Origin: Candidatus Saccharimonadota bacterium
GTDB lineage: Bacteria > Patescibacteriota > Gracilibacteria > BD1-5 > UBA6164
Direction: 5' to 3'
NCBI GenBank assembly: GCA_965229705.1
Contig: OZ245922.1
Coordinates: 1-32,000, forward strand
DNA length: 32,000 bases
A model generated the notes under the pieces. The model made no database searches and was not told where the DNA came from. It worked only from the letters and a program-made list of their open reading frames with translations. A program made the position numbers and the translations under genes. This document shows positions 6,527-30,338 of this stretch, piece by piece. How positions within the stretch are numbered: position 1 is the stretch's first letter; each line of letters starts with the position of its first letter.

Positions 6527-9181
6527 TTATTTTTTGTATACCTGTATATTTACGCTATCACTCATAGAATTATTATTTGAAAACGCTACCTTGAGAGTGA
6601 CAGTATAACTTCCAGTTTTTGAGTAACTATGAGTGGGATTTGCCTCGGTAGAAATATTTCCATCACCAAAATCCCAAAAATACTCCATGATCTGCCCCTG
6701 AGAATCAGCGGATGAAAAATCAATTCCTTGTCAGATAGGAGCTCTTTTGAGACTCGTTTTTATAGAAACATCTTGCGCAGGAGGGAGAAGTACCAAACTC
6801 TTTTCTAGAGAATATTTTTTTCCGGATTTTCCCGTAACTGTCAGCCTGACCGTATAGTCTCCAGCTTTTTTGTAGGTATGTCATGGATTGATAGCGTCTC
6901 TCTCTTCTATGATACCATCACCATAGTCGTAGGTAAACTTTACGATATCATCATTTTTGATAAAAGATTTTGAGGCGTCAAAACGTACACTCACAGGAAC
7001 ATAGTTGTCCTCATATTGCATATCCAGACTCAAAACAGCATCTTTTTTGAGTCCTTCGATATATACAAACTCTGAGAGGTTGATAATGTCATCTTTGTTT
7101 CTTCTATGTTCAAAGGTGTAATTGACTCTAAGAGTATGATTTCCAGCTGTGGGTATCTCCATATCAAACCTCTCTCCATTTCCATCAATATCTCCATCAT
7201 TTCATATATCCCATGTGACATCACTGAGTACATAGAGAATATTTTCAGGTCTCACATATCGAGCAATAAAACTGAGAGTGCTTGGTACTCCTTGCTCATC
7301 AATAAAATACTCATGAGCATTTTCCTCATATCGTATATTTTCGAGATCTTCTCATTGTTGGTTCTCTATGATAAGAGATGAACGGAGTTTGAGTTGTTTT
7401 TGTAGCGTAATGATTTGTGTGAGGAGTTTTTGAGCACCAGTAGTATCTGTCAAAACCACTTCTATTTCTTGGTCTCCAAAGCGAGAGAAAGTATGCTGTA
7501 TCACCTCTGAACTGTTTGATCCAGAACTCTTGGGTCAGACACTATATGTTTTATCCTCTATACGCCACTGGTAGCTTTCGATAAAACCATTTCCAAAAGC
7601 AGTAGCAGCATCTATTACCTGAAAACTATAAGACAATTCATCTTCGAGAGATGCGAGGGCTTGTATATCTCATACTATTTCTGATTGACCATCGTTTCAT
7701 AGCTTAAGAACTTTATCTATCTGTGGATCAGTAGTATTTCATGACTGAAGAGATACACCGACATATATATCATAAAAGAAAATATCACTCGGAAAGAACT
7801 CATATCATGTATATATTTCTGTCCATTCAGGATATCGAGGATTTGGATTATCTGCTGTTTTTGGTTCAAGGAAATACCATACAACTTCTCATAAATTCTT
7901 GAGATTCTGAGCATCAAAAGAGACTTTTTTCCCTCAACTTTTTGTTTTTGTTTCTCGCATGTTTATAGTGTGAGAAATAGTCACGGCAGGAACATTGACG
8001 ATTTCTTGGGTGAGAGGATTCCCCTCTATATCTGTTCCTTGCGCTCTCACAGATATTTCATAGTTTCATATATCAGAAAAAGTTTTTATGATTTCGGGAG
8101 TAAAGCTTTCTTCTGTAATATCACCAAAACTCCAAATATATTTTTTTACCTGAAAGCCTTTTTTTGCTTGAGAATCTTGAAAGTTATTCAGATCAAAGCG
8201 AAGAGTTACAGGTCCTATCAGATTTTCACTACTAGATAAAAGCGCCTGTGTATCACGAAACTGTGAAGAGATAAGCAGATCATTATCAAATATCTTGAGG
8301 TCTCCGTATGCTTGTTCTTGCCAGTTTGGGAGGTTTTTTATTTGTTGATCAATATACATCCATGCGCTTCCCGTCATAAAAGTGAAAAGTAGGAGAGTCG
8401 CAGAAAGTATTGCAAAGTTGATACGCTTTTTTCTCAATACTTTTTTGGTAAGTATAAATGTGAGCAGAGCATATGAGAGAGCAATGGTACAGATAAAAAG
8501 CAGTATGGAAAATATGAGACTAACAATTTGTGATATAAAGCTATTGATATCATTGAGGTTGATTCATAAGCTGGCGAAGAATTTTACATCTTCCACTGTT
8601 TTTGCATTCAGTACAATAAAGGCAATAAAAGCTCCTCAGAGTATGAGTCATACAAAGAGGATTGCTCATAAAAATCAAAATATTGCTGAGAGAGGGGTCT
8701 TGGCTTTTTGTTTTTTTGCTTGAACACTGAGATCTTCTTTGACGCGTATCCATAGTCGTTCCCCATTTTGTCATGGAGCAGTTTTACTGTGTATATGAAA
8801 GTTTTTTGACGAGACAGATACTTTTCCTTTTCCTTCTTGCTCGACATCTGTATTTTCGAGAATGAGTCCTGTGAGTTGTTTGAGTTTGAAGAGTATGTTG
8901 GTATAGTTTGGATACTTTATATATCGAATTTCTCGGTCTATATTATCCTGTTTACATGTGATTTTGACCTCATTTTCTTCAGGTTCTACGATGATGTAGT
9001 CATATTCTTTTTCATGCAGGAGTGTCACAACATCTTCAAGAGACTGGATATTGATATCTATGATTTTACTTGCAGGTATTTTCTCTGGAGTTTTTTGCTC
9101 TTTTTCACCAGTATCTTGAGGAGTATGTGTATGAGTTTCTGCAGAAAGGGGATCAATAGTTGACGTGTTTTCTTGTGGCAT
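6527..9181 (-). CDS. 884-aa membrane protein: GspE/PilB N2-like N-terminal domain, 3 TM helices, about 4 PKD-like repeats
   Basis: I translated all 885 codons on the reverse strand; the only stop is TAA 6527-6529. It fuses track ORFs 8771..9181, 8066..8437 and 6881..7162. N-terminus: YDYIIVEPEENEVKITCKQDNIDREIRY..LKQLTGLIL..GKGKVSV..HIHSKTAPGQNGERLWIRV. TM helices: LSAIFGFLGAILFVGLILGGAFIAFIVL, IVSLIFSILLFICTIALSYALLTFIL, INFAILSATLLLFTFMTGSAWMY. PKD motifs: YIWSFGD, VSFDAQN, VTWDIGNDGDIDGNG, VRFDASKS..FTYDYGDG, YFWDFGDGNISTEANPTHSYSKTGSYTVTLKV. Confidence 0.85.
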
Positions 9182-9526
9182 TATTTCCTCTTTTATTTTT
9201 TCTTTCTCAGAAGTCTTTTGTCTATCCTCGTGAACGGGAGATACATTTCTATTTCAGATAGGAGGAGTATTTTCGCTTACTTCTTCATCAATATTGAGAT
9301 TGAGTTTGGAAGGGTCAAAGTTGTTCATAGTTTTTATATTCTATATCCTTTTGCTCGAAAAAGCCCTTTTAAGGAAAAAATAAATTTCTTTATACAAATA
9401 ATAGCATATAAAAGGGAAAAATGTATAAAAAAAGCCTTGACGAAGCTGACTCAGAGTGAGAAAACAATTATCAACAAAAAACCCTTCAAAATTATGACAA
9501 CTTTCAAAAAAAGAGAAGAATCTATC

Positions 9527-9635
9527 TTCCCCTCCCTTATCAAGGGAGGGGTCAGGGGAGGGTTACATATTCTAGAGATGGCTCGGTAGAACCAGAGAGG
9601 ATGAGAAATTTTCTATTTTTCAGAGTCTCCTTTAA
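9527..9635. repeat. MITE-like repeat, B-type (one clear terminus plus a G/C-rich hairpin)
   Basis: The reverse complement reads TTAAAGGAGACTCTGAAAAATAGAAAATTTCTCATCCTCTCTGGTTCTACCGAGCCATCTCT, then the hairpin CCCCTCCCTTGATAAGGGAGGGG. The core matches the copies at 15641 and 23313. Confidence 0.65.
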
Positions 9636-9693
9636 ATTCTTGTTTTTAGACTTTCCTGCATATAATCTCTGGAATATCAGCAGAGATTTTTTT

Positions 9694-11778
9694 ATGAAGA
9701 AACATATCAGAAAATGACAGGCATGATCTCAGAATCTTCTTCCAAAAAAGAAAGCAGTCACAAAAAAGATTTTTTATCAGTCGACTCCAAAAAAACATCA
9801 TACGACTCTAGAGTGAGTATATAAACAGATAAATGAAAGAGTTGCTTTTATTGATGTAATATATGAGAAAACAAACGAAAAAAAATGATACTTTGTGCAT
9901 AGCTCAAATACACTTTGAGCCTTTGATGGAGATAGAGTTGTATTTCGTACAAAGTTTTTTCGTGGAAGAGAGGAGGCAGTGATATGTAGTGTTGTTCAGC
10001 GGAGTACAAAAATGATTATTTGAAAACTCCAAATAGGCAAAAAGTTTGCCTTTGTTCTTCCGGAAAACTCCATCATAAAAAAAGATATCTTTATTCCTGG
10101 GAAACACCTCAGGTGATATACACACGGAGAAGAAGTTGCCGTACAAATACTCAAGTGGGAAGGAAAGTCCCCAGAATGAAGAATCATGGAATCAATACAA
10201 AAAATGCCAAAAGGGCGAGAAGATATATACAAGATAGCTTTGCAAGAATGAGTGAGAGTAAACTTTTGAAACAACTTACAGATGGTGAGACCGGTCTCAA
10301 TAGAAAAAGAAAAAAAGACTCGTCAAGATCTTCGATCACTCTATACTTTTACGATAGATGGAAGTGAGAGTAAAGACCTTGATGATGCTCTTTCCCTACA
10401 ACCTCTTTTTGCCGAATCTCGCGAAGGAGAAAAACCCAAACAGCAAAAGGGATGGAGACTCTTTGTGCATATTGCTGATGTTACTCACTTTGTACCAGAA
10501 AACTCATCGCTTGATAGAGAAGCTCGAAAAAGAGCAACAAGTATATATCTTGCAGATCAAGTGATACCTATGCTTCCAAAAAAACTTTCAAATGAACTGT
10601 GTTCTCTTCATCCCGGAGAAGACAAACTGACTCTGACTTGTGAGATGCATCTCGATTTAGAGGGAAGAGTACAAAATACGCAGGTCTATGAGAGTATTAT
10701 TTCCTCTGACTATAGACTGACATATCAAGAGGTAGAGTCTCTCACGGAAAAACCCTGAAGCAGTATATCTTGAGAAGATTTACAACTTTGAGACCTGCTT
10801 CAGTTTTGATGAAAGCTAACGCGCGAACTCCAAGATCATCTCAACCATCTCAAAAAACTCACAGATATACTGAAAAAAAATGCGACAAAGCGATGAGTAC
10901 TCAGTTTTGATTTTCCAGAAACATATGTGGAACTAGATACCACATGACAACCACTCAATTATAGAGATTATCCACGCTATGATTCTCACAAAATCATCGA
11001 AGTGTGTATGGTGCTTGCGAATGAGCAGGTAGCAAAAATGTTTTCAAAAATCCCATTTTTGTACCGAGTACACGAAGATCCAGACCCAGAAGATATAGAC
11101 AGTTTTCTTGTGATGCTGGAAAAGATATCGCATGAAAAACATATTTCCCAGACTCTTTCTTCTCAAAAGGGGTTTAGGAGTTTTTCTGATATATGAGCCT
11201 TTCTTCAGAAACATCCCTCTCTCTCATATTTACAAAGAAGACTTTTGAGGTCAATGGCAAAGGCAAAGTATAGTGAAAAAAACCTATGACACTTCTGACT
11301 TGCTTTACAATACTACACACATTTTACTTCTCCTATTCGTCGATATAGTGACTTACAAATACACAGGATTATCAAAGAATATATTACGGGAAAAACATGA
11401 ATATCTCGAGAAAGAAAAGATCATTATCAAGAGATACTTCCAAAAGTTGCTCGACAATGTAGTGAAATGTCTGAGAGAGCAGAAAAAATAGAATATCGCG
11501 TGAGAGATATGCATGGATGTAAGTATATGCAGGAAAAAATCTGACAATATTTTACAGGGCGTATTTCTTGAGTGGGAACAAAGTGATTTTTTGTAGAACT
11601 TGAAAATACTATTGAGTGATTTGTTGAGTATGCTTTGAGTTGATATCAGATGCAAGAAGACGCTATAGGCATAGTACATATCAGCTCTGGAGAAGAAAAA
11701 TACTTTGGAGATGCCGTTGAACTGCGACTCATCAATGTAGATATGCAGAGATATAAAATTGAGTTTGATTTAAGATAG
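9694..11778 (+). CDS. rnr: ribonuclease R / RNase II family exoribonuclease
   Basis: Same frame as track ORFs 10282..10758 and 11002..11196, joined through TGA=Gly. Motifs: [67 protein letters not shown]-terminal S1-like GRISGVGTKGFFVEL. Stop TAG 11776-11778. Confidence 0.9.
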
Positions 11779-11818
11779 CATGCTACACTTGCAAATAATA
11801 TTTTTTCATCACTTTCTT

Positions 11819-12184
11819 ATGACTCTCAAACAACTTCTTCGTCTCACCGGTATTCCTGTATTACTTGCAAGTATGTGCTGTCTCTCACCACTGATCTTTT
11901 TCCTTTTATGAATCGTCTCATTGAGTGTTGCAACAGAGCTGGCAGAGCTCTTTTATGGAACATACAAGTGGGTGTTTCGATGAGTGGGACTTTTGTCACT
12001 CGTGTGAGCCTTATGATGGTATTTTTATACAAAAGGAGTTTGTACGCTCGACGCAGTAAAAAAACAGAGAAAAAAAGTCATAAATACTATTCTCCTCGTT
12101 TTCAGTGTATGAATCCTTGCCTATATATTCTTCCTCTATATAGTGGTACATTATATAGGTGTATGGTTAGATATTTGGAAATAA
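11819..12184 (+). CDS. small integral membrane protein with a vicinal Cys pair (MerT/MerC-like first helix)
   Basis: I read frame 2 codon by codon with five TGA=Gly. [31 protein letters not shown].., with 3-4 hydrophobic helices. Stop TAA 12182-12184. The overlapping track ORF 11875..12207 is in another frame and is not hydrophobic. Confidence 0.6.
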
Positions 12185-13577: not shown

Positions 13578-14924
13578 ATGCGGTATTTTCACCGATTTTC
13601 TCTTCCTGAAAAAATATCACTGAGTTTTTCCCTGTTTGCTTTTTTTTCATTGGTACTGTTCCTCTTACTGGTTAATATTACCTATTTTTTTATTTGGTAT
13701 AATGATCAAAAGCAACAAAGTTTTTCAGATATGGATATTACCTATAACTCTATGAACTTTTCTCAAGATCAAAAGAGCCGAGATGCTTTTCAGGCATATC
13801 TGATGACGCAAGACACTATGATCATTCCACAAAATGGTGAACTCATATGTTCTCCAAGCGTGAGCTCAAAAATCAAAGAAGCACCAGAAGAAATACAAGA
13901 TAGATATTTCTATAAAGATGGAGATACTACATATTTTATCTATTCAAAGTACTTTGAAGGTATAGGAGAAGTGAAAGTATTTTTTGATACGACGCAGTAT
14001 ATCAATGACCAAGTGACTATCATGAAGGTTTCTCTGATATTTATTTTGTTGATGTTCCTTGTACAATATGCAGCTGGAAAATATGTCACAAAAATTCTTC
14101 TTAGGCCTCTCAGGAGCTTTTCTCACGAAATACGAAATATAGATATTCATGCTCCGAAACAAGTTCTCACTTGTAACGAGCCACAGCATGATGAGCTCTA
14201 TATGCTGAAAGAGTCTTTTAATACTGCTCTTGAAAGTATTACTCATCAAACAGAAAAACTCAAGCAGTTTCTCACAGATGTGAGTCATGAGTTTAAAACA
14301 CCCTTGATGGTTATGAGTTCAAAGCTTGATCTTTTAGAAAAAAAAGCAGAAAAGCATAGAGGAAAAAAACTCGATATCGCAGCATATTTTTCTGAAAGTC
14401 GAAGAGAAATACACAAGATGAATAGTCTCTTAGAATCTCTTTTTCTTCTTTCTCGCGTGGAGGAAAACAAGATGTGTCTTATCACTCAAAAGCTCGAGGT
14501 GAGGAATATATTTTTGAGTGAATGTGAGACAATGAGACAAAAGTTTCCACATAAAAATATACAGATCAATATAGATATATCGGAGAGTCTCTACTACCAG
14601 CTAGAGGAAAGTACCTTTCGTGTATGTATTGCGAACTTGCTTTCAAATGCTTGTAAATTTTCTGGAGAAGAAGTGGCTTTAACAATACATGCAGATACTG
14701 ATACATTTTCTATTTGAGATAATGGTCGATGAATACTCTCTTGAGAAAGAGAGAAGATATGGCAAAAGTTTTATCGTCAAGATACCAAGATAGAGGGATT
14801 TGGTATTGGTCTGTACTTAGTAAAGCGTATAAGTGATATGTATGGATGGGAGATAGTTCTCTCAGAGAATACTTCTCAGGGAACGGTGTTTACATTTCTT
14901 TTGAAACATAATAATAAGATCTAA
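13578..14924 (+). CDS. sensor histidine kinase
   Basis: Track ORF 13578..14717 extended through TGA codons. Two N-terminal TM segments, H-box SHEFKTPL, ..IGDNGRGILSGEREKIWQKFYRQD.., G-box GFGIGLYLVKRI. Stop TAA 14922-14924. Confidence 0.85.
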
Positions 14925-14948
14925 ATATATATTTTTTTACACAATGAT

Positions 14949-15614
14949 ATGTCACATATACTCATCATAGAAGATCATACAGAGATCGCATCTAATATTC
15001 AGGAGTTTCTGGAGCTAGAATGATATAGGGTTTCTCATGCGCGTGATGGAGAACAGGGAATAGAAAAAGCTCTCAAAGAAGACTATGACCTTATTTTACT
15101 CGACCTTATGTTACCAGAAGTAGATGGGATATCAATAGCAAGAAAAGTCACACAGAGAAAAAATACTCCTATCATCATGATGACGGCAAAGTCATCTCTT
15201 CAAGAAAGACTTGCAGGCTTTGAGGTATGAGCGGTCGATTATCTGGTAAAGCCTTTTGATCTTTCAGAACTTCTGGCTCGTATACAGGTGCATTTACGAT
15301 ATAAAGACCGATGAACTTCATCATCTCCCTGACTTCATATTTCTTGAGTTGATATAAATATGAAGAAGCGAAAGTTTATGAGAGATAAGCAAGAGATTCA
15401 TCTAACACATAAAGAGTTTCTTATTATGGAAAAGTTGATTGAGAGTCGTGATCAGGTAGTATCTCGAAGTGATATTATAGAATACTTATGGTGATGAGAA
15501 GCATTGTTTGGGAGTGATAATAAGCTTGATGTGTATATATCAAATATTCGCACAAAACTTGGGAAGGAGTGTATAAGAACGATAAAGTGAGTGTGATATA
15601 TTCTTGGAGAGTAG
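14949..15614 (+). CDS. OmpR-family response regulator
   Basis: MSHILIIEDH.., LILLDLMLPEVDG, DYLVKPF. The winged-helix output domain ends ..YISNIRTKLG..IRTIKGVGYILGE. Stop TAG 15612-15614. Confidence 0.9.
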
Positions 15615-15805: not shown

Positions 15806-16348
15806 ATGCAAAAGCTCTATTATATTTGAGTATGTGGACTCTTGGTAACACTTGCATCGTGCACTACGCAGGATACTTCACAGGAAGAGGTTATTATACC
15901 TCAAGAAACTGTTTCGACAGAGATCAGGGAAACTGTTGTAGATCAGAAAGCTATGAAGGAGGAAGTTATGCAGCAAAAGCCAGTACAAGAACCACAAGTA
16001 TCACAGGTGGTATCTGAGACGCGATCAAAACTGTCAGAAACTCGCAGTGGTGTCTATGCTGAGTACAGTGAAGATGCTCTTACTCATGGAGGAGATACGG
16101 TACTTTTCTTTCATGCTGCGTGGTGTCCGAGCTGTCGAACTGCTGATGCAGCACTTTCTTCAGCGAAGATTCCTGCTGGTTTGAGTATTCTAAAAACAGA
16201 TTTTGATAGTCAGCGCACTCTGAGAAAAGAGTATGGGATTGTGAGTCAGCACACTTTTGTACATCTTGATAGTGAAGGAAACTTTGTGAAGAAATGGGTT
16301 GGAGGGAATAGTCTTGAGGGAATTGTTGAGCAGGTGAAGTCATTATAA
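15806..16348 (+). CDS. thioredoxin-fold lipoprotein (CxxC = WCPSC)
   Basis: MQKLYYIGVCGLLVTLASC (lipobox L-A-S-C), a low-complexity linker, then VLFFHAAWCPSCR. Same frame as track ORF 15842..16348. Confidence 0.8.
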
Positions 16349-17204: not shown

Positions 17205-18044
17205 ATGAGAATCAATCTCAAAAAACAATGTTTTGGTTCTCTCCTCGAAATACATGGAGAGTCTCAAGAAAATATCAATTCAGTCATTACTGAGTCATTT
17301 TCATACATAGATGACTTTGAACAAAAATATTCTCGCTTTATTTCTGGAAACTGGCTCTCAAAACTCAATAAGGGTAAGAAAGCATGACTCACAAAAGAGA
17401 TAAAAGCGATCATAGAACTCTCTCTCAAAGTTTCTCACCAAACAGAGGGGTATTATGATATCACGATATTACCACTTTTAGAAAATGCTGGTTACGGTAT
17501 ACAGAAGAAGAAAATTCCTGAAAATATTGGCTATAAAAATATTGTGATACATGGAGATATGATAATACTTTGATGAAATGTTTCTCTCGAGTTTGGGTCT
17601 TTTGGAAAATGATATATTGTTGATTATCTCTATAGGCTGCTCGAAAAACATTTCAAGTTTTGAGTGATAAACTTTGGTGGAGATATGAGAGTCATCGGAG
17701 AAAAAGATATTCATCTTGAAAATCCTGTAAAACTCTGAGAGTATATTGGAAAAACTTCTCTCAAAAATATGAGTATTGCCAGCTCAGCAGGAAATAGAAG
17801 AAAACTCCAAAAAGGCACACACCTACAGTTTCATAAAAAAGTTAGACAATGAGAACGAGTTCAGGCAACATATATCACGCACCAACTTTGTACCATGGCA
17901 GATATCTATAGTACCGCGCTCTTTGTATGTCCTTTTCAAAAAGCAGTACATATACTTGAGACGACTCACTGACTTGAGTGAATGATTATTTCAGAGACAG
18001 GAGAGATATACACAAGTACACATTTTGACTATTATCCTCAATAA
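17205..18044 (+). CDS. apbE: FAD:protein FMN transferase (ApbE family)
   Basis: I read it codon by codon. Motifs: GSFGKGYIVD, INFGGDMRVIG, SIASSAGN, MADIYSTALFV. An in-frame TAG at 17190 excludes a longer N-terminus. No signal-peptide-like segment. Stop TAA 18042-18044. Confidence 0.85.
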
Positions 18045-18053
18045 AATGCTCTT

Positions 18054-18677
18054 ATGAACCCAAAAACATTGATACAGCTCGGAAATATATTGTCACCAGT
18101 TTTTTTACTGATAGCCCCTCTCCTCTGGCTAGGAGTGAATTATTTTTGATTTTTGTATACTAGTTTTTTATGACTGACGATATATACATGGTTTTTTGCC
18201 GCGAGTTGGTATGCGGTTGTTTTTGTGATGATGATTCGCCCTCTTGCTGATCTATTTCCTAGCCACAAACTCTTTAGGAAATTGTGTCTTCTGCGTCGGG
18301 CTTTTGGTATCTTGTCGGCAACGATTATTCTTACGATACTTTTTTCAAATTGGTTCACTCTTACAGGATCTTTTTATGGATTTTTCTCGTGGTCTTCATG
18401 GTCTTTTGGATCCTCTCTTATAGCGAGAATGAGTGAAGTAACAGCAATCATACTTCTCATAACTTCAAATAACTTTTCTCAGAGACTGTTGAAGAAAAAC
18501 TGGAAGCGCATTCAGCGTTTGAGTTATATATATTTTCTTTCTTGAGGAATACTAGCAATGCGTTATGGAGATGAATATTTTGTGATGATCACGCTGGTGG
18601 CAACGCTTATACTCTTTTTGCTTGCTGAGGGGAAAAAACTTTGGAAGAAGTTTCAGACTTCTCGTATACGGGGGTAG
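18054..18677 (+). CDS. 6-TM MsrQ/YedZ (ferric-reductase-like) family-like membrane protein, apparently lacking the heme His ligands
   Basis: MIRPLADL.., LRRAFGILSATIILTILF, NWKRIQRLSYIYFLSGGILAM; six hydrophobic helices. Same frame as track ORF 18225..18545. Stop TAG 18675-18677. Confidence 0.6.
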
Positions 18678-18756: not shown

Positions 18757-19053
18757 ATGGATTTTACAAAAGATAATTTTTCATCAGAAACAGCAGAAGG
18801 TTTAGTACTTGTAGATTTTTGGGCAGAATGGTGTTGACCGTGTCAGGGGATGATGCCAGTTTTGGCTGATTTGGAAGCTACAGGAGTAAAGGTAGGAAAG
18901 GTCAATGTTGATACGCAGCCAGATCTTGCAGCTGAGTTCCGCGTTATGAGTATTCCCACTCTTGTATGGATGAAAGACGGAAAAGCAGTAGAACAAATGA
19001 TTTGAGCGCAAACGCTTGAGACGCTGAAAGAGGCTGCGCAGAAGCATAAGTAG
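18757..19053 (+). CDS. trxA: thioredoxin
   Basis: VLVDFWAEWCGPCQ, with the active-site Gly encoded by TGA 18835-18837; ..MSIPTLVWMKDGK... 98 aa. Stop TAG 19051-19053. Confidence 0.93.
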
Positions 19054-23482: not shown

Positions 23483-24772
23483 GTTTCAAAAAAGTGTGTA
23501 AAATAAGAGATAAAAAAATAAGGTATGTATGCAAATATGTACCTTATTTTTTTAATCCCTTAGGATATGGAAACTATATTGCAAAGATTAAAAAGCACAA
23601 TAGAGAGTGCTATATACGAAGAATTTGAGGATTTTGTATCACGAGTAGATGTGTATAAGAACGGAACTCGTAAGATACGCCCTAAAACCTACTTTGGTCG
23701 TATGGATTTAGAAATACCTCGTACCCGTTGAAAAAAAGAAGAAGGCACAGTGTTTTTTTCTGAAATAAAAGCAAAAACACTCGAACAAATATTCGATACC
23801 ATTTGGAGTCAGATACTTGGTCTGATGCGATTATGAAATACTTTTGAAGATATAAGACAGTATTTTACAGAAGTATATGGTTTTGGATTTTCTAATGATT
23901 TGCTCTCAAAAATATCAGCGTATATGATGAACTTCTGGGTTTCAAGTCAAGAACCTTACTTAATTTTTACACAATAGTATATCTGGATGCTACCTATATA
24001 AAGATGAAGGTTGAGAGTCATAGTGGCAGAAGCTGTATTAAAAGTGTGCCAGTATATTTCATCATCTGAGTAAATATATACGGAGAAAAAGATATTTTAG
24101 ACTTTGTGGTGATGCAAAAACCAGAATCATCAGCTGTATGGCAAGAAATTATAAATAGTATAAAAAATCGAGGCGTAGATGATATTCTCATAGCTTGTGT
24201 TGATGGACTGGCCGGATTTCAAGAAGCAATACAATCTTGTTTTCCGAACACTCAAGTTCAGCCCTGTATCGTGCACAGAGTCAGAAACCTTCTCCAGTCC
24301 ATTTCATACAAAGATAAAACAGAATTTTTTATGGAGTTTAAGAAAGTGTATAACGCTGTTTCTCAAGAGGAGGCTCTCAAGTTTTTAGAGGCTATGAAGC
24401 AGAAATGGGAAAAATATAGTATCTTGCTTCAGGAATGGTTTTATAATATTGATGTATGGGGAGGGTATTTTAAATATTCTTATCCTCTCAGAAAGCTTAT
24501 ATATTCTACGAATGTGATTGAGAATTTTAATGGACTTATTAAATCTAATATTTGAAAAAGAAGAGTATACTTTACTCAGAGATCTGCTGAAATATCTATA
24601 TTTCTTGCAGTACAGAATAAACAAAAATCTCTCAAAAAAGTACGTGATTTTCATTCATTAAGAATGGAACTCGTAGCTTTCTTTTGAGAAAAAAGAATTC
24701 CTGTTCTGTAAATTTTTATTACAATAATTTACATACATACCTCATATCTATTTTTACACACTTTTTCAGAAC
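23483..24772 (+). mobile_element. IS256-family insertion sequence (about 1.29 kb)
   Basis: Imperfect terminal inverted repeats. Left: GTTTCAAAAAAGTGTGTAAAATAAGAG..AAGGTATGTATGCAAAT. Reverse complement of right: GTTCTGAAAAAGTGTGTAAAAATAGAT..GAGGTATGTATGTAAAT. They enclose one transposase gene. I saw no clear target-site duplication. Confidence 0.75.
23567..24711 (+). pseudogene. IS256-family (mutator-type) transposase interrupted by a -1 frame change
   Basis: The N-terminal part runs in frame 2 from ATG 23567 (..NGTRKIRPKTYFGRMDLEIPRTRG..DIRQYFTEVYGFGFS..NFW) and hits TAG 23975-23977. The remainder is in frame 1, open from 23896 (..KSRTLLNFYTIVYLDATYIKMK.., ILIACVDGLAGFQEAI..CIVHRVRN.., IYSTNVIENFN). 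Stop TAA 24709-24711. The most parsimonious join is near TTCTGGGTTTCAAG (23933-23946). Confidence 0.75.
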
Positions 24773-24956: not shown

Positions 24957-25106
24957 GGTAAGAAACTCTGAAAAAAGCATTTTCGTTTTTTTCCAAGACC
25001 GGTGTCTTACATGAGATTTTTTTATTTCTCTCCTTTTGCAAAGGAAAGATGCCTCGTTAGAGCCAGAGTGGATTGAAGAATTTTTATTTCTCAAAGTCTC
25101 TTTAAC
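24957..25106. repeat. composite MITE-like element (half A-type joined to an inverted B-type)
   Basis: GGTAAGAAACTCTGAAAAAAGC..CCAAGACCGGTGTCTTAC.. (A-like) is followed by the reverse complement of TTAAAGAGACTTTGAGAAATAAAAATTCTTCAATCCACTCTGGCTCTAACGAGGCATCTTTCCTTTGCAAAAGGAGAG (B-like). The right terminus overlaps the stop codon of the next gene. Confidence 0.7.
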
Positions 25107-26730
25107 AAATTTTCCCATCTCTGGGATAATCAAAATCAAGATCAATAATATGAAGACCCGAGTCATTTATAATGCGAGTAAGAAGTGGTTGGAAATCTTC
25201 TTTTTTCTCTACCTTGTATCATTTTGCTCCAAAACTCTCAGCCATTTGTACATAATTGATTTTTCCAAAATCAAGACCATAGTCATCAAATCCTCCTCAA
25301 TGTTGCTTCCATTTTATCATTCCATAAGAACTATTATTCAGCACCACTATCACTAGATCCAGTCAAAGACGAACAGTTGTCTCCAGATCACCAAGATTCA
25401 TCACAAGTCATCCATCACCTGTCACGCATACAACTTTTTTTTCAGGGTTAAGCCTCTTTGCCTCCATAGCACTGGCATATCCAGCTCACATGGTTGCAAG
25501 AGCATTATCTAAGAGAAGTGTATTAGGTTGGCGAGCTCGATAATTGCGAGCAAGCCATACCTTATAGAGACCATTATCAAGAGCAAGTATATCATCATCG
25601 GCAAGAACTTCCCTGAGGTCTTTTGCGAGTCTTCGAGGCATCATATAAGGTATATCATCTTCAAGTGTGAGATTGTCAGATATTTTTTGTCTATTTCATT
25701 GGGCTATCTCATATATCCTTCTAAAGTCCCAGTTTTGTCCATCGATCTCTAACTCATAGAGCCTCCAAAAAGCATTTCCAATATCTCAAATAATATCAAT
25801 GTATGGAGAGTATACATAGTCAAAATGTGATTTGGTAAAATTGATATTTATCACTGGAACTCCATTGATACCCAAAATATCTGTTGGTTTTTCTGCGTTA
25901 TCGTATCATACTGAAAGAATGAGGTCAGACTCAGCAATCGCTTCATGAATATAGTCTCCACTGGTAAGTGCTGCTGTACCAAGGTTTTGTTCATCGAGAC
26001 TCACATCTATCACCCCTTTTCCCATTTGACTACTAAAGTACGGGATATTATGTTTTTTTAAAAAAAGTGTGAGATACTTAGTGATACGCTTACGGTTTGC
26101 TCCAGCTCCTACAAGAACTATCGGACATTTTGCCTTCTCTAACTCTTGTTTTACAAGTATAATCGCTTTTTCATCTATTTCTGGACGGCGAATTTTATGT
26201 GTTTTGAGATCAATTTGGGTAAAGTTTTCGGCTACTTCTTCTGCAGCGATATCTTCGGGAAGTTCAAGATGAACGGCTCAAGGTTTTTCGTCTTCAGCAA
26301 TGCGAAAGGCATTTTCTAAGATGTATGGTATTCTCTCACCAGAAACAATACTTATAGCATGTTTTGTTACTGGTTTCATCATACTCACGGCATCTATGAT
26401 CTGAAAAGATCATTGTTTTGAGTGATTTTGTGGTTTTTGTCCGGTAATAACGATTACTGGCATACCTCCAAGTTGGGCGTAAGCAATACCTGTCATCATA
26501 TTGGTAGCTCATGGTCAAAGGGTTGCCAGAGCAATTCCAGCTTTTCCTGTGAAGCGTCCATAAGTTGCTGCCATAAAAACTGCTGTTTGTTCATTGCGAG
26601 TCAGTATGAGTTTGATTGAAGATTTACCAATACTATCGAGCAAATCAAGGTTTTCTTCTCCAGGAACACCATAAATAGTTTCCACTCATTTTTGTTCCAG
26701 GATTTTTACAAATAGGTCTGATGATTTCAT
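25102..26730 (-). CDS. acetolactate synthase-like thiamine-diphosphate enzyme (large subunit / catabolic type)
   Basis: 1629 nt in one frame with TGA=Gly. N-terminus: MKSSDLFVKILEQKGVETIYGVPGEENLDLLDS..NEQTAVFMAATYGRFTGKAGIALATLGPGATNMMTGIAYAQLGGMPVIVITGQ. The TPP-binding part includes ..VCVTGDGG... The C-terminus ..LDFDYPRDGKIC ends at TAA 25102-25104. Confidence 0.88.
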
Positions 26731-26957: not shown

Positions 26958-28046
26958 TTATTCAAACATCTTTTTATACTCCTCATACCCTTCTTGTTCC
27001 AAATCCTCAACTGGAACAAACCTCAAAGCTGCAGAGTTGATACAATGACGAATCCCTCAAAGCTCATCGGGCGCATCAGAAAAAATATGCCCCAAGTGCG
27101 CATCGGAAGAACGACTCCTCACCTCTGTGCGAGTCATAAAAAATCGCGTATCTGTATGAGTGGTAACCACATCATCTGAAAGAGCGCGAGTAAAGCTGGG
27201 CCATCAAGTTCATGAATCAAACTTATCCAAAGAACTATATAAAGGTGTTCCATCAATAATATCTACATATATCCCTGCTCGTTTATTGTCCCAGTACTCA
27301 TTTTGAAATGCTCGCTCCGTCCCCTCTTCTTGCGTCACATGATATTGGAGAGGTGTAAGCCTTTTCCTAAGAGCCTCATCGCTATAGGTATCTTGCGTCA
27401 GTTTGGCTATTTCTTGTCTCCAGTTCTCCTCGATAAATCCAGCTCTTCCGGATCACTTTTTGTAGAGATTATACCGAAGAGCTGATTTTTTATAATAATC
27501 TTGATGATACGATTCCGCGAGATAAAACTCTGGTGTCTTCAGTATCTCGGTTACAATCTCTTGTTCAAATTTCCCAGACTCAGCAAGAGCTATCTTTGAC
27601 GCCTCAGCTATCTGCCTTTCCTCATCATCACTCACATATATCGCTGTGGTATATTGGTAGCCCTTGTCCGCAAACTGACCGTCTGGATCAGTCGGATCGA
27701 TTTGTGTCCAAAAAAGCTCTACAAGAGTAGCATAAGAAATACTCTCAGGATCATAGCTCACTCGAACTGCCTCTCGATGCTGTGTTTCTCATGATGCTAC
27801 CTGCGTATAATTTGCTGAATCAGCACTTCCTCCTATATACCCTGACTCTGCTGCGTACACTCCGTCTTGCGCTTCAAATATGCCTTCCATACACCAAAAA
27901 CAACCTCCAGCAAAATAGGCATATTTCTGTTCTCCTTTTATTTGTGAACTATCTTTTTTCATATCAGCCGTACTCAGAAAATATTGAGATCAAACAAGGA
28001 AACATATGATGACGAAGATTCCTCATAAAGAAAGTATTTTTTTCAT
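26958..28046 (-). CDS. msrAB: membrane-anchored bifunctional methionine sulfoxide reductase MsrA-MsrB
   Basis: 1089 nt in one frame. N-terminal anchor: [23 protein letters not shown]. MsrA: [15 protein letters not shown] (track ORF 27453..27761 is the core). MsrB: ..[50 protein letters not shown]. Stop TAA 26958-26960. Confidence 0.9.
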
Positions 28047-28055
28047 AATATAACA

Positions 28056-30338
28056 TTATGGAAGTATCAGATTTTCTCCATGACTTGCAACAAGAGAAAA
28101 CCACATCTCAAAATATCAAGGGATTTCCTGAGGATTTTGAGAGCTTGATACAGATGCAAGACCTGTATCAAAGCGAGCTGTATACCTCACTCATTCATGC
28201 TCTATTGTTGACTCTCATGACGCTCAGAGTTCTTCCCATGGAAATCATAGTACTATATCTCCATCTCGCACGACATAAAAAAGCTTTTTTGGATGATAGC
28301 TCATATCCCTCTCTCATCATACAGGGAAATAGAGGTCTTCACTCTCATCATAGTTTCCATATGGTATTTCTCCATATCTTCGGAGATATCCTGTCTCATT
28401 TGAGAGCACTTCACCCTCTGGAAAGAGTCTCTGATACTCACTATAACTCATCAGATCTGTATCAATTATCTTCAGCTGTTTCCCTATATTATCTCCTATC
28501 AATGCTTTTCACTCACTCTGACTCCAGAGCGTTTCTGTTTGTGAATCATACATGAGCAAATTAGAGTTATAGAGTTGTCCAGAGACACCAAAGTGTACTT
28601 CTTGGTCATCGATAACTCTCTCATATACGATACCCGAACCACACAGTGGGCAAAAAGTAACAGCAACTTTTTTTCCAGCAAAATCATCATTTACAATCTC
28701 GTGCCATACCAAAACATCATAACCGTAAAATCGCGCATTATTATCTTCATCAACAAGTACAAGTCCTAAATCATCATCTCCGAGATATGCTGACTTTTCT
28801 GCTACTTCTCTATGGTTCAAAAACTTTGGTGCTCGAATGGCAGGAATACCATCTTTTCATGGTCATCCATCAAGAACGAGCTGGAGGTCAATAAGAGTTT
28901 TTGCCGTATTTGTTTGAAGTCCTTGACGCGAAAAGTGATATTCTCCTTCTCATAAAGTACTCATCTCTTCTCTAGGATTACCAGTATCTATTAGGGAAGT
29001 ATCTTCTTGTTTTTCTTTTATGAGGCGTATGATCTCTTGTCGTTTTTCCTCGTATCATCATTCTCAAAAATGCGTGTAGCGAATATTTCCTGTATGGTCT
29101 ATGAGATAAAAAGCTGGCCAGTACTTATTGTTATATGCCTTCCAAGTTGCAAAGTCATTATCTTGCGCAACCGGAAAACCAATTTCATATCTTTCTACGG
29201 CTTTTTGTACTTCTTGAAGTTTTTTCTCATACGCAAACTCTGGCGAATGAATCCCGATAACTCTCAATCCTTGGCTATAAAATTCTTCAAAAAGTGCTTG
29301 TGTCTGCTTGTGAGTATTGATACAGTTTACGCAGCTTGCTGTCCAAAACTTGATCATCACAATGTTTCATCTCAACTCAGAGAGACTTGATATTTTTTCT
29401 GCGTTTATCCATCCAGTCAATCAACGAAAATCAGGAGCTGTATATCCTGATACGCTCTCTGATTTTCCTTCTAACAGGTGCTCAGGATCTAAAAAAGAAA
29501 GCGATCACTCTATATGTTTTTCACAGCTTCCATCACGACACTCGGAGTGTAGAGGTTTATCATTTTGAAGAGTTTTTTGTTCAGAGGATAGTGTTGGCTC
29601 AGTATTTCATATATCAAATTCTTCTATGATTCTCTGTTCAAATCCTGTAGTATTGAGAAATCCAGCATCGAGTAGAGCTATTTCTATTTTTTTATCATAG
29701 CCGGTCAGTATAGCGATACCGACACATATAAAGACAATTCATAATATTTTTTTAAATATTCCGTCTGGTTTACTTGCCCATGTGAGTCTCCTGACAAGTG
29801 ATTGACCAAATATCGCAATAGCGAAAAGGATGACTGCGAGTCAGAGGGTATAGGATATCAGAGCCAAAAATCAAAATGCAAATCCTACTGGAAGAATAAT
29901 TGTCAGTATCAGGGCGTAGGTCGGAGAACAACTACTAAATACTGGACCAAGTGCAAACCCCATAAAAATATATTTTGATATACCTTGTTTTTCTTGTGTT
30001 TTATGAAGAAGGGTATTTGATGTTCCTGTAAATCAGAGTTTTGTAGAAATATATTTCCAAGTATTTGGAAAAAGCGTGATAATACCAAGCGAGATAACAA
30101 TTCATCCTGAAAAAGTTTTCCAAAAACTTGGAGGAACATCTATGAGAATGGTACTCGCTTTTAAAAGAAGGGAGAAAATGATGATCGAGATACTCAGCGA
30201 AGCAATAATCACTATGGGAATGCGTTTGTTGTTTCCGTCTTCGGCACTAGCTCAGAGGATAATTGGGAGGAGAGGAAGGACGCATGGAGCGAGAACGGTT
30301 AGTACTCAGGAGAAAAAGGCAATAATGAGAAGCGTCAT
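28056..30338 (-). CDS. DipZ-like tri-domain fusion: CcdA/DsbD-type transmembrane domain + TlpA/ResA-type thioredoxin domain + DUF3179 domain
   Basis: I translated all 761 codons with no TAA/TAG until 28056-28058; an in-frame TAA lies just upstream of ATG 30338. CcdA: VLTVLAPCVLPLLPIILG and PVFSSCSPTYALIL. Trx: MIKFWTASCVNC (track ORF 29064..29360). Junction: RYTHFGEGGYEEKRQEIIRLI. DUF3179: LDGGPGKDGIPAIRAPKF, VTFCPLCGSGIVYE, LYNSNLLMYDSQTETLWSQ, YFEMWFSLVASHGENLILP (track ORFs 28509..28820 and 28317..28502). Confidence 0.8.

Follow-up and report, generated by a model that had tools for sequence, protein, structure and literature searches.

In the window, the 32,000-nucleotide stretch of DNA analyzed here, a single gene encodes a 760-residue protein that joins a CcdA membrane domain, a DipZ-type thioredoxin and DUF3179. 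We propose, with a probability of about 0.6, that this protein works outside the cytoplasm as a self-contained reducing hub, in which CcdA would supply the thioredoxin and the thioredoxin would serve both the tethered DUF3179 and a membrane-anchored MsrAB. What we observed directly are the identities of the domains, an outward topology read from hydropathy and charge, the conservation of the cysteine pairs, a conserved operon and a genome-wide association of DUF3179 with CcdA and thioredoxins.

A CcdA domain and a DipZ-type thioredoxin in one polypeptide

The N-terminal domain matches the DsbD_TM profile (PF02683) at residues 3-211, covering profile positions 3-215 of 219, with 26.6 bits, 0.5 under the gathering cut-off of 27.1. 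Homologues of the 760-aa protein score with PF02683, and Thermus CcdA (5VKV) was matched over residues 4-214 (E=4e-5). Hydropathy places six hydrophobic segments in this domain and none after residue 230. The even-numbered loops at aa 92-123 and 179-195 are rich in lysine and arginine, so both termini of the domain are predicted to face out. Hydropathy and charge, on which this topology is based, imply that the soluble C-terminal domains would lie outside the membrane. Two membrane cysteines, Cys19 (APCVLP, 30282-30284) and Cys137 (SSCSPT, 29928-29930), are conserved in 67 of 67 relatives from four architectures. With its polytopic core and both of these cysteines, the domain is predicted to be a CcdA/DsbD-type transmembrane electron conduit.

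Table 1. Features of the operon and of related genes in the window, with the basis of each assignment.
Feature	Position	Strand	Basis
Two-component system: HisKA/HATPase sensor kinase (13578-14921) and OmpR-type response regulator (14949-15611)	13578..15611	+	Pfam
Lipoprotein thioredoxin, lipobox LASC, active site WCPSC	15806..16345	+	Pfam, motif, synteny
Cytoplasmic thioredoxin TrxA, WCGPC	18757..19050	+	PF00085, E=1.9e-24
TPP-dependent enzyme, downstream of msrAB	25105..26730	-	Pfam; conserved synteny marker
msrAB, 362 aa + TAA	26958..28046	-	PMSR, SelR, TIGR00401, TIGR00357; hydropathy; alignment to 7E43, 5FA9
Intergenic spacer TGTTATATT, 9 nt, fusion stop codon to msrAB start codon	28047..28055	-	Sequence
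Fusion gene, CcdA - linker - DipZ-type thioredoxin - DUF3179	28056..30338	-	Table-25 ORF, Pfam, full-length homologues
DUF3179 domain, aa 470-760	28059..28931	-	Pfam, invariant columns, homologue model
DipZ-type thioredoxin domain, aa 296-445	29004..29453	-	AhpC-TSA/Redoxin profiles, DipZ structure match, Foldseek
Linker, aa 216-295	29454..29693	-	Cys pair conservation, homologue model
CcdA membrane domain, aa 1-215	29694..30338	-	DsbD_TM profile, 5VKV match, hydropathy/charge, Cys conservation

The CxxC thioredoxin domain had been described as DipZ-like, and our searches bear this out. Pfam finds AhpC-TSA at residues 298-421 (E=3.3e-15) and Redoxin (E=1.5e-11), and M. tuberculosis DipZ (2HYX/5CYY) is matched at E=2e-39, with C336-V-N-C339 (29322-29333) aligned to C-I-N-C of DipZ. 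This cysteine pair is 100% conserved. Foldseek with a homologue model of the domain retrieved DipZ, SOQ1, NHLRC2, ResA and Etrx2. The protein shares with DipZ (the M. tuberculosis Rv2874 type, composed of CcdA, thioredoxin and PF17991) its N-terminal CcdA core with two conserved cysteines, its thioredoxin subfamily (motifs APD..G.TGW.N, FW..SC.NC, H.PEFA.EK, YWPA.YLID and FGEG.Y) and a domain order in which both soluble domains are predicted to lie beyond the membrane. Whereas true DipZ relatives carry PF17991 (Thioredoxin_10), Pfam gave no match to it in the 760-aa protein, in which DUF3179 takes the C-terminus. The window protein also differs from DipZ in sharing an operon with MsrAB and in having a cysteine pair in the linker that DipZ lacks. 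That pair (CxDGxC, Cys267/Cys272, 29523-29540), part of a Cys-rich linker noticed earlier, is present in 9 of 9 three-domain and 17 of 18 CcdA-thioredoxin relatives and absent from 20 of 20 DipZ proteins; the equivalent stretch of a homologue (P0126, residues 245-287) is predicted to be disordered, with pLDDT<50. DsbD/ScsB-type reductant transporters likewise have a membrane Cys-pair conduit covalently joined to periplasmic thiol-redox domains that feed several clients. In contrast to these, the window protein has a CcdA-type core of 6 rather than 8 transmembrane segments, no immunoglobulin-like alpha domain and a terminal domain without a solved fold counterpart.

DUF3179 has an invariant cysteine pair and a modelled fold without a PDB counterpart

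As the preliminary description had it, the C-terminal part gives a full-domain match to DUF3179 (PF11376; residues 495-734, E=2.6e-68), scoring 231 bits where 27 would suffice. In a 102-sequence alignment with the window protein as its first row, the protein keeps all 28 invariant columns, which include the family motifs F-C-P-L-C-G, WHE and GGPxKDGIP. The pair C563-P-L-C566 (28641-28652) is invariant, with 100% conservation. The family is large: a single search scored more than 6,900 of its 90%-identity clusters. Its members come from both bacteria and archaea, among them Nitrosopumilus, Methanosarcinales, marine Gammaproteobacteria, Actinobacteria and many organisms of candidate phyla. Of 78 DUF3179 genes, 77 encode a hydrophobic signal or anchor at the N-terminus, and the window domain, like the family, is predicted to be extracytoplasmic.

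A literature search on DUF3179/PF11376 function turned up nothing beyond selenoproteome tables and incidental mentions. The tables include DUF3179 among the selenoprotein families, with the motif UxxC/T (PMC9312934, PMC13188914), so a redox role for its CxxC is not a new idea. We saw the selenocysteine form directly at one locus (L128), which reads VTF-U-PLCG and has a DUF3179 HMM E-value of 2e-109. A SECIS-like hairpin after its TGA is present but no stabler than shuffled sequences (z=0.26), so the evidence for the assignment is one in-frame TGA together with the literature. Unlike these selenoproteins, the window domain is the cysteine form: its first CxxC codon is TGC (28650-28652), and because TGA encodes glycine in this genome, selenocysteine is not expected.

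Structural comparisons used models of two homologues, P0010 (48% identity) and P0126 (57%), rather than of the window protein, and a high-confidence DUF3179 model was obtained for P0010. Foldseek of a DUF3179 homologue model against the PDB returned nothing below E=0.1, the partial matches to Rieske ferredoxins and sliding clamps being insignificant, and a profile search of PDB sequences gave only the chance-level, Trm112-like 2HF1 (E=0.66). The models suggest that DUF3179 has a fold without a counterpart in the PDB.

DUF3179 is associated with CcdA and thioredoxins across genomes

A survey of gene neighborhoods showed the enrichment that had been anticipated. CcdA and/or a TlpA-like thioredoxin was found at 35/80 species-level DUF3179 loci and at 0/119 control loci (Fisher p ~1e-14 to 1e-16), a background that may be understated since the control-locus HMMs were made from test-set neighbors; at 45 of the 80 loci both were absent within 6 kb. 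Thioredoxin-fold families and DsbD_TM rank first among DUF3179 neighbors in an unbiased Pfam census. Annotation-free clustering within 4 kb of the 80 loci gave thioredoxin-like proteins in 26 and a separate CcdA in 19, with a fused CcdA at 5 further loci. An architecture census, in which DUF3179 is mostly a stand-alone exported protein, counted 56 CcdA-thioredoxin, 50 CcdA-DUF3179 and 11 three-domain clusters.

Permutations of the three modules, as fusions or operons, recur across Patescibacteria, DPANN and Thaumarchaeota archaea, and Actinobacteria. They include CcdA-DUF3179 fusions with a thioredoxin gene directly upstream (L006, L013, L023, L043, L087), thioredoxin-DUF3179 fusions (L054, L071, L074, L080), the gene order CcdA, DUF3179, thioredoxin (L019) and, in other Gracilibacteria, CcdA followed by a thioredoxin-DUF3179 fusion at a locus with no Msr among its called genes. 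Compared with stand-alone DUF3179 and the two-domain fusions, which are far commoner, the three-domain form of the window is lineage-restricted, and every example that we saw came from recoded Gracilibacteria-type sequences. The architecture is already public without an assigned function, under the entry name 'DUF3179 domain-containing protein [Candidatus Gracilibacteria bacterium]'. Recurrent fusions, the neighbor ranking, the contrast with control loci and the invariant CPLC together make a strong comparative case that DUF3179 is generally linked to CcdA and thioredoxin, and this indicates that it may be a widespread cell-surface thiol-redox module supplied by both.

Metal-binding proteins, too, can carry Sec/CxxC motifs, and the CPLC motif alone is therefore no proof of redox catalysis. 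DUF3179 might handle metal or reactive sulfur or selenium species instead of acting as a reductase, a reading that we consider unlikely. At the cell surface, its invariant His/Cys/Cys set (WHE...x16...CPLC) would then be a binding site for Cu, Hg, Zn or a persulfide, and CcdA and thioredoxin would merely keep the ligand thiols reduced, as in ScsB/ScsC or Sco systems. Some neighborhoods are consistent with this: ArsR-family regulators lie within 4 kb at 9 DUF3179 loci (directly upstream where checked), MerA with an HMA domain lies 2.2 kb off at L079, an HMA P-type ATPase and an HMA-DsbD_2 protein adjoin the CcdA and thioredoxin-DUF3179 genes at L211, and SoxA/TsdA cytochrome c, DoxX and CMD/AhpD-like neighbors occur. 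However, such neighbors are far rarer than thioredoxin and CcdA, and the HMA, CopC/CopD and Sco families are all missing from the top neighbor lists. In our reading of the alignment, His84 stands 16 residues ahead of the CxxC, which is the spacing between the two Rieske ligand loops, and the weak, partial Foldseek matches to Rieske ferredoxins point the same way, but these matches are not significant (E 0.4-1). Although the selenoproteome tables list several UxxC proteins that bind metals (PMC9312934, PMC13188914), the second ligand is missing from the published UxxT variants.

Less likely still is that DUF3179 has no catalytic role and serves as a specificity or docking domain that steers the thioredoxin to particular surface substrates, possibly including MsrAB, in place of the C-terminal PF17991 of DipZ or the NHL propeller of SOQ1/NHLRC2. 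Over its N-terminal 58%, the protein is related to DipZ (46-48% identity to CcdA-thioredoxin-PF17991 proteins), DUF3179 occupies the exact position of PF17991 in DipZ, and the closest thioredoxin structures (DipZ, SOQ1 and NHLRC2) all have a beta-rich C-terminal partner domain. Nevertheless, an invariant CxxC with selenocysteine substitution would be unexpected in a docking domain, and the ~28 invariant and ~50 near-invariant residues in the family alignment suggest an active site. The prevalence of DUF3179 alone as an exported protein, and the 50 clusters that fuse it straight to CcdA without a thioredoxin, also argue against docking.

The three-domain frame is continuous in a genome that reads TGA as glycine

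The preliminary description read three domains, in order, from one 760-aa frame without TAA or TAG, and both the table-25 translation and Pfam agree. The reverse strand from 30338 to 28056 holds 760 codons and a terminal TAA, with zero in-frame TAA or TAG before it and 25 in-frame TGA codons. The motifs APCVLPLLP, SSCSPTY, HSECRDGSCEKH, FWTASCVNC, GGPGKDGIPAI, FCPLCGSG and EMWFS, which include all those quoted at that time, are present in the translation.

Judged by alignment to non-recoded DUF3179 homologues, TGA is glycine in this genome, neither stop nor tryptophan. The TGA codons 492, 610 and 741 fall on columns with glycine in 98-99 of 101 sequences, and tryptophan is absent from the five commonest residues at every TGA column of that alignment. 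TGA matches near-invariant glycines, including those of the FGEGxY motif in the thioredoxin domain and of GGPGKDGIP in DUF3179. An independent metagenome contains a 760-aa protein of 95% identity that keeps the continuous frame, as do further relatives at 55-61% identity (744-771 aa). The architecture is retained by 11 homologous protein clusters, so the fusion is not an artefact, and the stop that had been feared between the thioredoxin and DUF3179 parts does not exist. Readthrough of real TGA stops joining separate genes, or a frameshift or assembly error, would fit the 25 in-frame TGA codons and the splitting of the region into small ORFs under table 11, but we rejected this reading as effectively refuted by the shared frame of the 11 independent clusters, the glycine columns, domain junctions free of TAA/TAG, a window that reads as coherent coding only without TGA stops, and the NCBI-deposited translation of one cluster, which shows no excess tryptophan.

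MsrAB pairs with the CcdA-thioredoxin module

As first described, a membrane-anchored MsrAB follows the fusion gene: the spacer is exactly 9 nt (9, 51 and 7 nt in relatives), and hydropathy finds a single N-terminal hydrophobic segment at aa 4-20, a putative membrane anchor. In alignments to 7E43 and 5FA9, C49 and C52 of the MsrA domain (aa 43-192, GGCFWCME) and C335 of the MsrB domain (aa 230-345, catalytic RHCINS) fall on the active sites. Threonine replaces the recycling cysteine of MsrB (SGTGWPSF), making it a 1-Cys MsrB, and relatives have the same MsrAB features.

The combination of CcdA, thioredoxin and MsrAB had been called an established surface methionine-sulfoxide repair arrangement, and published work on S. 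pneumoniae (PMC3914529), S. gordonii (PMC7034828) and F. nucleatum (PMC9239216) agrees. In streptococci and Fusobacterium, both thioredoxin reduction of MsrAB and oxidant sensitivity on loss of the system have been demonstrated (PMC3914529, PMC7034828, PMC9239216), and the Fusobacterium system has a linked two-component system, ModRS (PMC9239216). Like CcdA-Etrx-MsrAB2 of the streptococci and Trx/CcdA/MsrAB of F. nucleatum, the window and its relatives encode CcdA, an extracytoplasmic thioredoxin and an anchored, fused MsrAB together (L001, L002, L003/4, L209). A lipoprotein thioredoxin and a two-component system also belong to the conserved locus in the window's relatives, where the sensor kinase/response regulator pair (L002-L005, L209) and the lipoprotein thioredoxin lie directly upstream of the fusion gene. 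In contrast to the streptococcal and Fusobacterium systems, the regulator/thioredoxin block of the window is 12 kb from the fusion gene on the opposite strand, CcdA and thioredoxin form one polypeptide with DUF3179 attached, and MsrB is of the 1-Cys type. By analogy to Etrx, the lipoprotein is likely a second extracytoplasmic thioredoxin, and TrxA is a candidate electron donor to CcdA.

The three-domain fusion is followed by MsrAB at L001, L002 and L003/4. A sister operon of identical synteny (L209) encodes CcdA-thioredoxin and MsrAB with no DUF3179, and Msr was found near DUF3179 at 1/80 loci. Together with the Gracilibacteria that have no Msr among the called genes of the locus, these observations suggest that MsrAB pairs with the CcdA-thioredoxin module, and the sister operon indicates that DUF3179 is dispensable for the MsrAB branch. 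A general DUF3179-Msr co-occurrence was rejected on these grounds. DUF3179 had been suggested to be a redox client or partner in the MsrAB pathway; its tie to CcdA and thioredoxin stands (35/80 against 0/119), but its membership in the MsrAB pathway does not.

A conserved Gracilibacteria locus composed of GDH, sensor kinase, response regulator, thioredoxin, CcdA-thioredoxin, MsrAB and a TPP enzyme appears to have gained the C-terminal DUF3179 in one sub-lineage. We propose no role in the redox system for the TPP-dependent enzyme. Promoter and terminator scans around the operon gave counts no higher than in shuffled sequence.

Discussion

In the reducing hub that we favor, electrons from cytoplasmic thioredoxin would cross the membrane via Cys19/Cys137 of CcdA and reach C336/C339 of the tethered DipZ-type domain at the outer face. 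We infer these transfers from the known logic of CcdA/DsbD systems; DUF3179 would be a terminal reductase rather than a carrier. The first client would be the attached DUF3179, with C563-P-L-C566 as a redox-active centre in which selenocysteine replaces the first cysteine in some organisms; as its substrate we favor a small oxidised molecule, or else a protein thiol or sulfur species, at the cell surface. As second client, the separate, membrane-anchored MsrAB would repair oxidised methionines of surface proteins. We advance more tentatively, at somewhat less than even odds, the broader idea that DUF3179 represents a new class of reductases, extracytoplasmic, Cys/Sec-dependent and with a fold unlike those of solved structures, forming a third widespread client branch of CcdA/DsbD beside cytochrome c maturation and Msr repair.

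The fusions give DUF3179 a testable placement, outside the membrane and downstream of CcdA and a TlpA/DipZ-type thioredoxin, with a catalytic-looking C/U-x-x-C, and so turn an orphan domain into a defined biochemical question. Genetic work is feasible because some carriers can be cultivated: Salinibacterium and Cryobacterium have CcdA-DUF3179, and Marinobacter, Photobacterium and Psychromonas have stand-alone DUF3179. For the Gracilibacteria, the operon outlines how an uncultured, recoded, small-genome lineage arranges its defence against oxidative damage at the surface. If DUF3179 does define a new reductase branch, that branch would matter particularly to Patescibacteria and DPANN archaea, in whose reduced genomes the domain has repeatedly been fused to its electron suppliers.

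Results

The window (36% G+C) shows coherent coding only when TGA is not counted as a stop. With TAA and TAG as the sole stops, its minus strand is a single open frame from 30347 to 28056; the ATG at 30338, the start given in the preliminary description, opens 760 residues that include 25 TGA codons and end at a TAA stop (28056-28058), and every motif quoted in that description is found in the translation. The genetic code was examined by aligning the C-terminal part of the fusion protein with 101 non-recoded DUF3179 proteins. Glycine occupies the columns of TGA codons 492, 610 and 741 in 99, 98 and 98 of the 101 proteins and is by far the commonest residue when all TGA columns are summed; tryptophan is not among the commonest residues in any of them. 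TGA also encodes the glycines of the DipZ motif FGEGxY in the fusion gene and of the MsrB motif SG(C/T)GWPSF in msrAB. On sequence grounds, we assign this genome to translation table 25, which Gracilibacteria and Absconditabacteria also use. Many public relatives carry spurious W residues (4-7% Trp) because they were translated with TGA as tryptophan.

All three domains previously proposed, a CcdA/DsbD-type membrane domain, a CxxC thioredoxin (Trx) with a DipZ-like junction and a complete DUF3179, were recovered by profile searches. DUF3179 spans residues 495-734 (Pfam, E=2.6e-68), and the AhpC-TSA/Redoxin families match residues 298-426 (E=1e-11 to 3e-15). M. tuberculosis DipZ (2HYX/5CYY) matches the Trx module at E=2e-39, ranking ahead of Arabidopsis SOQ1, human NHLRC2, YkuV, ResA, pneumococcal Etrx and the PilB N-terminal domain, and these matches identify the module as specifically of the DipZ subfamily. 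The DsbD_TM score over residues 3-211 is 26.6 bits against a Pfam cut-off of 27.1, and the CcdA assignment is backed by Thermus CcdA (5VKV), which matches residues 4-214 at E=4e-5. We conclude that the gene product is a DipZ-like reductant exporter, alike in its CcdA-Trx part but with DUF3179 in place of the usual C-terminal domain.

Six hydrophobic segments lie within residues 1-215, and hydropathy analysis found no hydrophobic stretch after residue 230. Applied to the K/R-rich loops at residues 92-123 and 179-195, the positive-inside rule would place the N-terminus and the C-terminal 545 residues outside the membrane, where the soluble part of DipZ and DsbD also lies. In a full-length AlphaFold model of P0126, a 57%-identical homologue, residues 1-240 form a helical membrane domain and residues 245-287 a disordered linker, followed by confident Trx and DUF3179 domains, the latter with pLDDT above 92. 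The fusion protein has nine cysteines, among which the pairs C19/C137 (CcdA), C336/C339 (Trx) and C563/C566 (DUF3179) are kept in all relatives examined. The linker described earlier as Cys-rich holds a further pair, CxDGxC, present in 9/9 three-domain proteins and 17/18 CcdA-Trx relatives (26/27 Gracilibacteria-type proteins together) and in 0/20 canonical DipZ proteins; C205 is not conserved. This distribution marks the linker pair as a lineage-specific element. It sits on a flexible tether, in a segment predicted to be disordered, and may act as an extra redox relay or form a small disulfide-closed loop.

The 362-aa MsrAB encoded downstream combines PMSR and SelR domains and contains both catalytic motifs, GGCFWC and RHCINS. 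Its sole hydrophobic segment (residues 4-20) corresponds to the N-terminal membrane anchor proposed for it, and a hydrophobic start is likewise seen in its homologues from relatives. Threonine replaces the recycling cysteine of MsrB, as it does in the MsrAB of three related loci, making this a 1-Cys MsrB whose sulfenate would therefore need direct reduction by a thioredoxin. Experiments have shown that the same CcdA-Trx-MsrAB arrangement repairs methionine sulfoxides at the cell surface of S. pneumoniae (PMC3914529), of S. gordonii (PMC7034828) and, under control of the ModRS two-component system, of F. nucleatum (PMC9239216).

In related loci L002 and L003/4, the gene order is glutamate dehydrogenase (GDH), HisKA kinase, OmpR-type regulator, thioredoxin, fusion, MsrAB and TPP enzyme; L005 has the same upstream genes, followed downstream by a gene other than MsrAB and then the contig end. 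The window carries these genes as two blocks with a split Mutator-family transposase, probably a pseudogene, between them, and in L001, the contig whose fusion protein is 95% identical, an intact Transposase_mut lies immediately 5' of the fusion gene. The blocks are contiguous in relatives, and these transposases suggest an IS-mediated rearrangement.

Just upstream of the plus-strand block is a membrane protein of 134 aa whose first hydrophobic segment contains a CC motif and which has a weak MerT match below the cut-off (E=0.0017); relatives have VTT/DedA and VTT-pyridine-nucleotide-disulfide-oxidoreductase genes in its position. An ApbE flavin transferase and the cytoplasmic thioredoxin flank a multi-pass membrane protein of 207 aa that matches no Pfam family; it may be a further redox component of the extracytoplasmic side, e.g. 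flavinylated or MsrQ-like.

Features of the window discussed in the text
Feature	Protein position	Window position	Strand	Remark
134-aa membrane protein		11780-12181	plus	
GDH, kinase, regulator, lipoprotein-Trx block		12.2-16.3 kb	plus	
ApbE flavin transferase		17205-18041	plus	
207-aa membrane protein		18054-18674	plus	
TrxA, cytoplasmic thioredoxin		18757-19050	plus	
Mutator-family transposase, two ORFs (136 + 235 aa)		23567-24708	plus	between the two blocks
Fusion-MsrAB-TPP block		30.3-25.1 kb	minus	
MsrB recycling-Cys position	MsrAB aa 274-280	27206-27226	minus	SGTGWPSF, Thr for Cys of GCGWPSF
Linker Cys pair CxDGxC	C267/C272	29523-29540	minus	conservation among relatives

The three-domain fusion is genuine and has counterparts elsewhere. 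An independent metagenome supplies a protein of 760 aa with 95% identity, and relatives at 55-61% identity (744-771 aa) share the architecture; one of them bears the database title 'DUF3179 domain-containing protein [Candidatus Gracilibacteria bacterium]', and the fusion sequences are already in databases, unremarked. Local HMMs identified 56 CcdA-Trx, 50 CcdA-DUF3179 and 11 CcdA-Trx-DUF3179 proteins among the best 120 clusters at 90% identity. The 150 best matches to P0126 among 1.84 billion 50%-identity representatives include no full-length three-domain protein: the top match is a fragment (P0017), no other three-domain representative is among the matches listed, and several others are CcdA-DUF3179 or Trx-DUF3179. 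Based on both searches, the three-domain form seems to be a narrow, Gracilibacteria-type version of a widespread theme, and the fusion system is lineage-restricted.

A general tie of DUF3179 to CcdA and thioredoxin is strongly supported. CcdA and DUF3179 are fused in Parcubacteria, Saccharibacteria, Peregrinibacteria and the actinobacteria Cryobacterium and Salinibacterium, with a small thioredoxin gene immediately upstream in 5/6 cases examined, and Trx and DUF3179 in Harrisonbacteria, Peribacter, Woesearchaeota and Thaumarchaeota; as separate adjacent genes, the three are found in every order. Marinobacter, Photobacterium and Psychromonas, which like Cryobacterium and Salinibacterium are cultivable, carry DUF3179 as a stand-alone protein. 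An unbiased count of Pfam families in ORFs neighbouring DUF3179, 150 of them nearest and 145 second-nearest, placed Thioredoxin, AhpC-TSA and Redoxin at the top, with DsbD_TM close behind. When 663 neighbour ORFs within 4 kb were clustered independently of annotation, this gave a Trx-like family in 26 loci, CcdA in 19 as a separate gene and in 5 as a fusion, pyridine-nucleotide-disulfide oxidoreductases in 22 (some fused to VTT/DedA), ECF sigma factors in 10, ArsR regulators in 9, DsbA-like, AhpD/CMD-like and G6PD families in 5 each, and DoxX in 4. HMMs of the Trx-like and CcdA neighbour families scored in 35/80 DUF3179 loci (880 kb) versus 0/119 unrelated metagenome loci (716 kb; Fisher p ~1e-14 to 1e-16); as a caveat, these HMMs had been trained on neighbours from the test set.

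The ArsR-family regulators lie ≤4 kb from DUF3179 in L022, L023, L025, L026, L028, L032, L035, L051 and L058, mostly Patescibacteria, and directly upstream in L022, L032 and L058 among loci with coordinates compared. They hint at metal- or persulfide-responsive control.

DUF3179 had been proposed as a redox client or partner in the MsrAB pathway; its redox link to CcdA/Trx stands, but a specific partnership with MsrAB does not. A sister operon of identical synteny (L209) encodes CcdA-Trx (441 aa) and then MsrAB without DUF3179, and locus L210 has neither DUF3179 nor MsrAB. In another Gracilibacteria genome (L211), CcdA adjoins Trx-DUF3179 (8241-11013, minus), with no Msr among the called genes at the locus. 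Of 80 species-level DUF3179 loci, drawn from a wide diversity of bacteria and archaea, a single one has an Msr gene within 6 kb. The evidence is thus against DUF3179 being part of the Msr pathway: MsrAB partners CcdA-Trx, and DUF3179 would be an added client. The L211 triad also adjoins an HMA P-type ATPase and an HMA-DsbD_2 fusion protein, a possible link to heavy-metal handling.

A hydrophobic signal, lipobox or anchor begins 77/78 DUF3179 genes that have an N-terminal extension. Aligning 102 DUF3179 sequences revealed 28 invariant and about 50 near-invariant positions, with motifs including GGPxKDGIP, WHEIxND, TFCPLCG, SNLLMYD, LWSQ, YPYGxY and EMWFSW, a density that suggests a catalytic or ligand pocket. 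Published selenoproteome surveys list a UxxC/T motif for DUF3179 (PMC9312934, PMC13188914) and already imply its redox nature. One direct example emerged here: on a high-G+C metagenome contig (L128; 2994-3013, plus), the single in-frame TGA of a lipoprotein-type DUF3179 (HMM E=2e-109) falls exactly at the first Cys of CPLC (VTF-U-PLCG), in agreement with the UxxC selenoprotein form in the literature; the stability of a hairpin just downstream was not above that of shuffled sequence.

The AlphaFold model of a 48%-identical stand-alone DUF3179 is confident (pLDDT 93, pTM 0.86) and beta-rich, and its order of strands and helices looks repeated across both halves. The PDB holds no significant counterpart by structure (best E=0.14) or by sequence profile. 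The sole profile match to DUF3179 alignment A1, the Trm112/YcaR-like zinc-ribbon protein 2HF1 (E=0.66, not significant), shares the CPLC...VFD and KDGIP motifs in opposite order, which may be no more than a curiosity or may hint at a permuted knuckle motif.

Discussion

The analysis shows which domains are present, how sequence rules orient them, how far they are conserved and how their genes are linked, and the mechanism that we propose builds on this. Electrons would pass from cytoplasmic Trx, for which the window encodes a TrxA, to C19/C137 of CcdA and on to C336/C339 of the Trx domain, which would serve two clients: C563/C566 of the tethered DUF3179, and MsrAB, at the C49/C52 disulfide of its MsrA half and the C335 sulfenate of its MsrB half. 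DUF3179 itself, we infer, would be a terminal reductase.

The main rival is that DUF3179 is a metal- or sulfur-handling domain, a role favored by its ArsR, MerA, HMA, SoxA/TsdA and DoxX neighbours and by its His-x16-CxxC spacing. It is less likely that DUF3179 serves for docking alone, in the manner of the C-terminal domain of DipZ or the NHL domain in SOQ1/NHLRC2, since its C/U-x-x-C is invariant and many forms stand alone or lack Trx. Through its set of fusions, DUF3179 acquires a defined place in the cell and becomes open to direct experiment.
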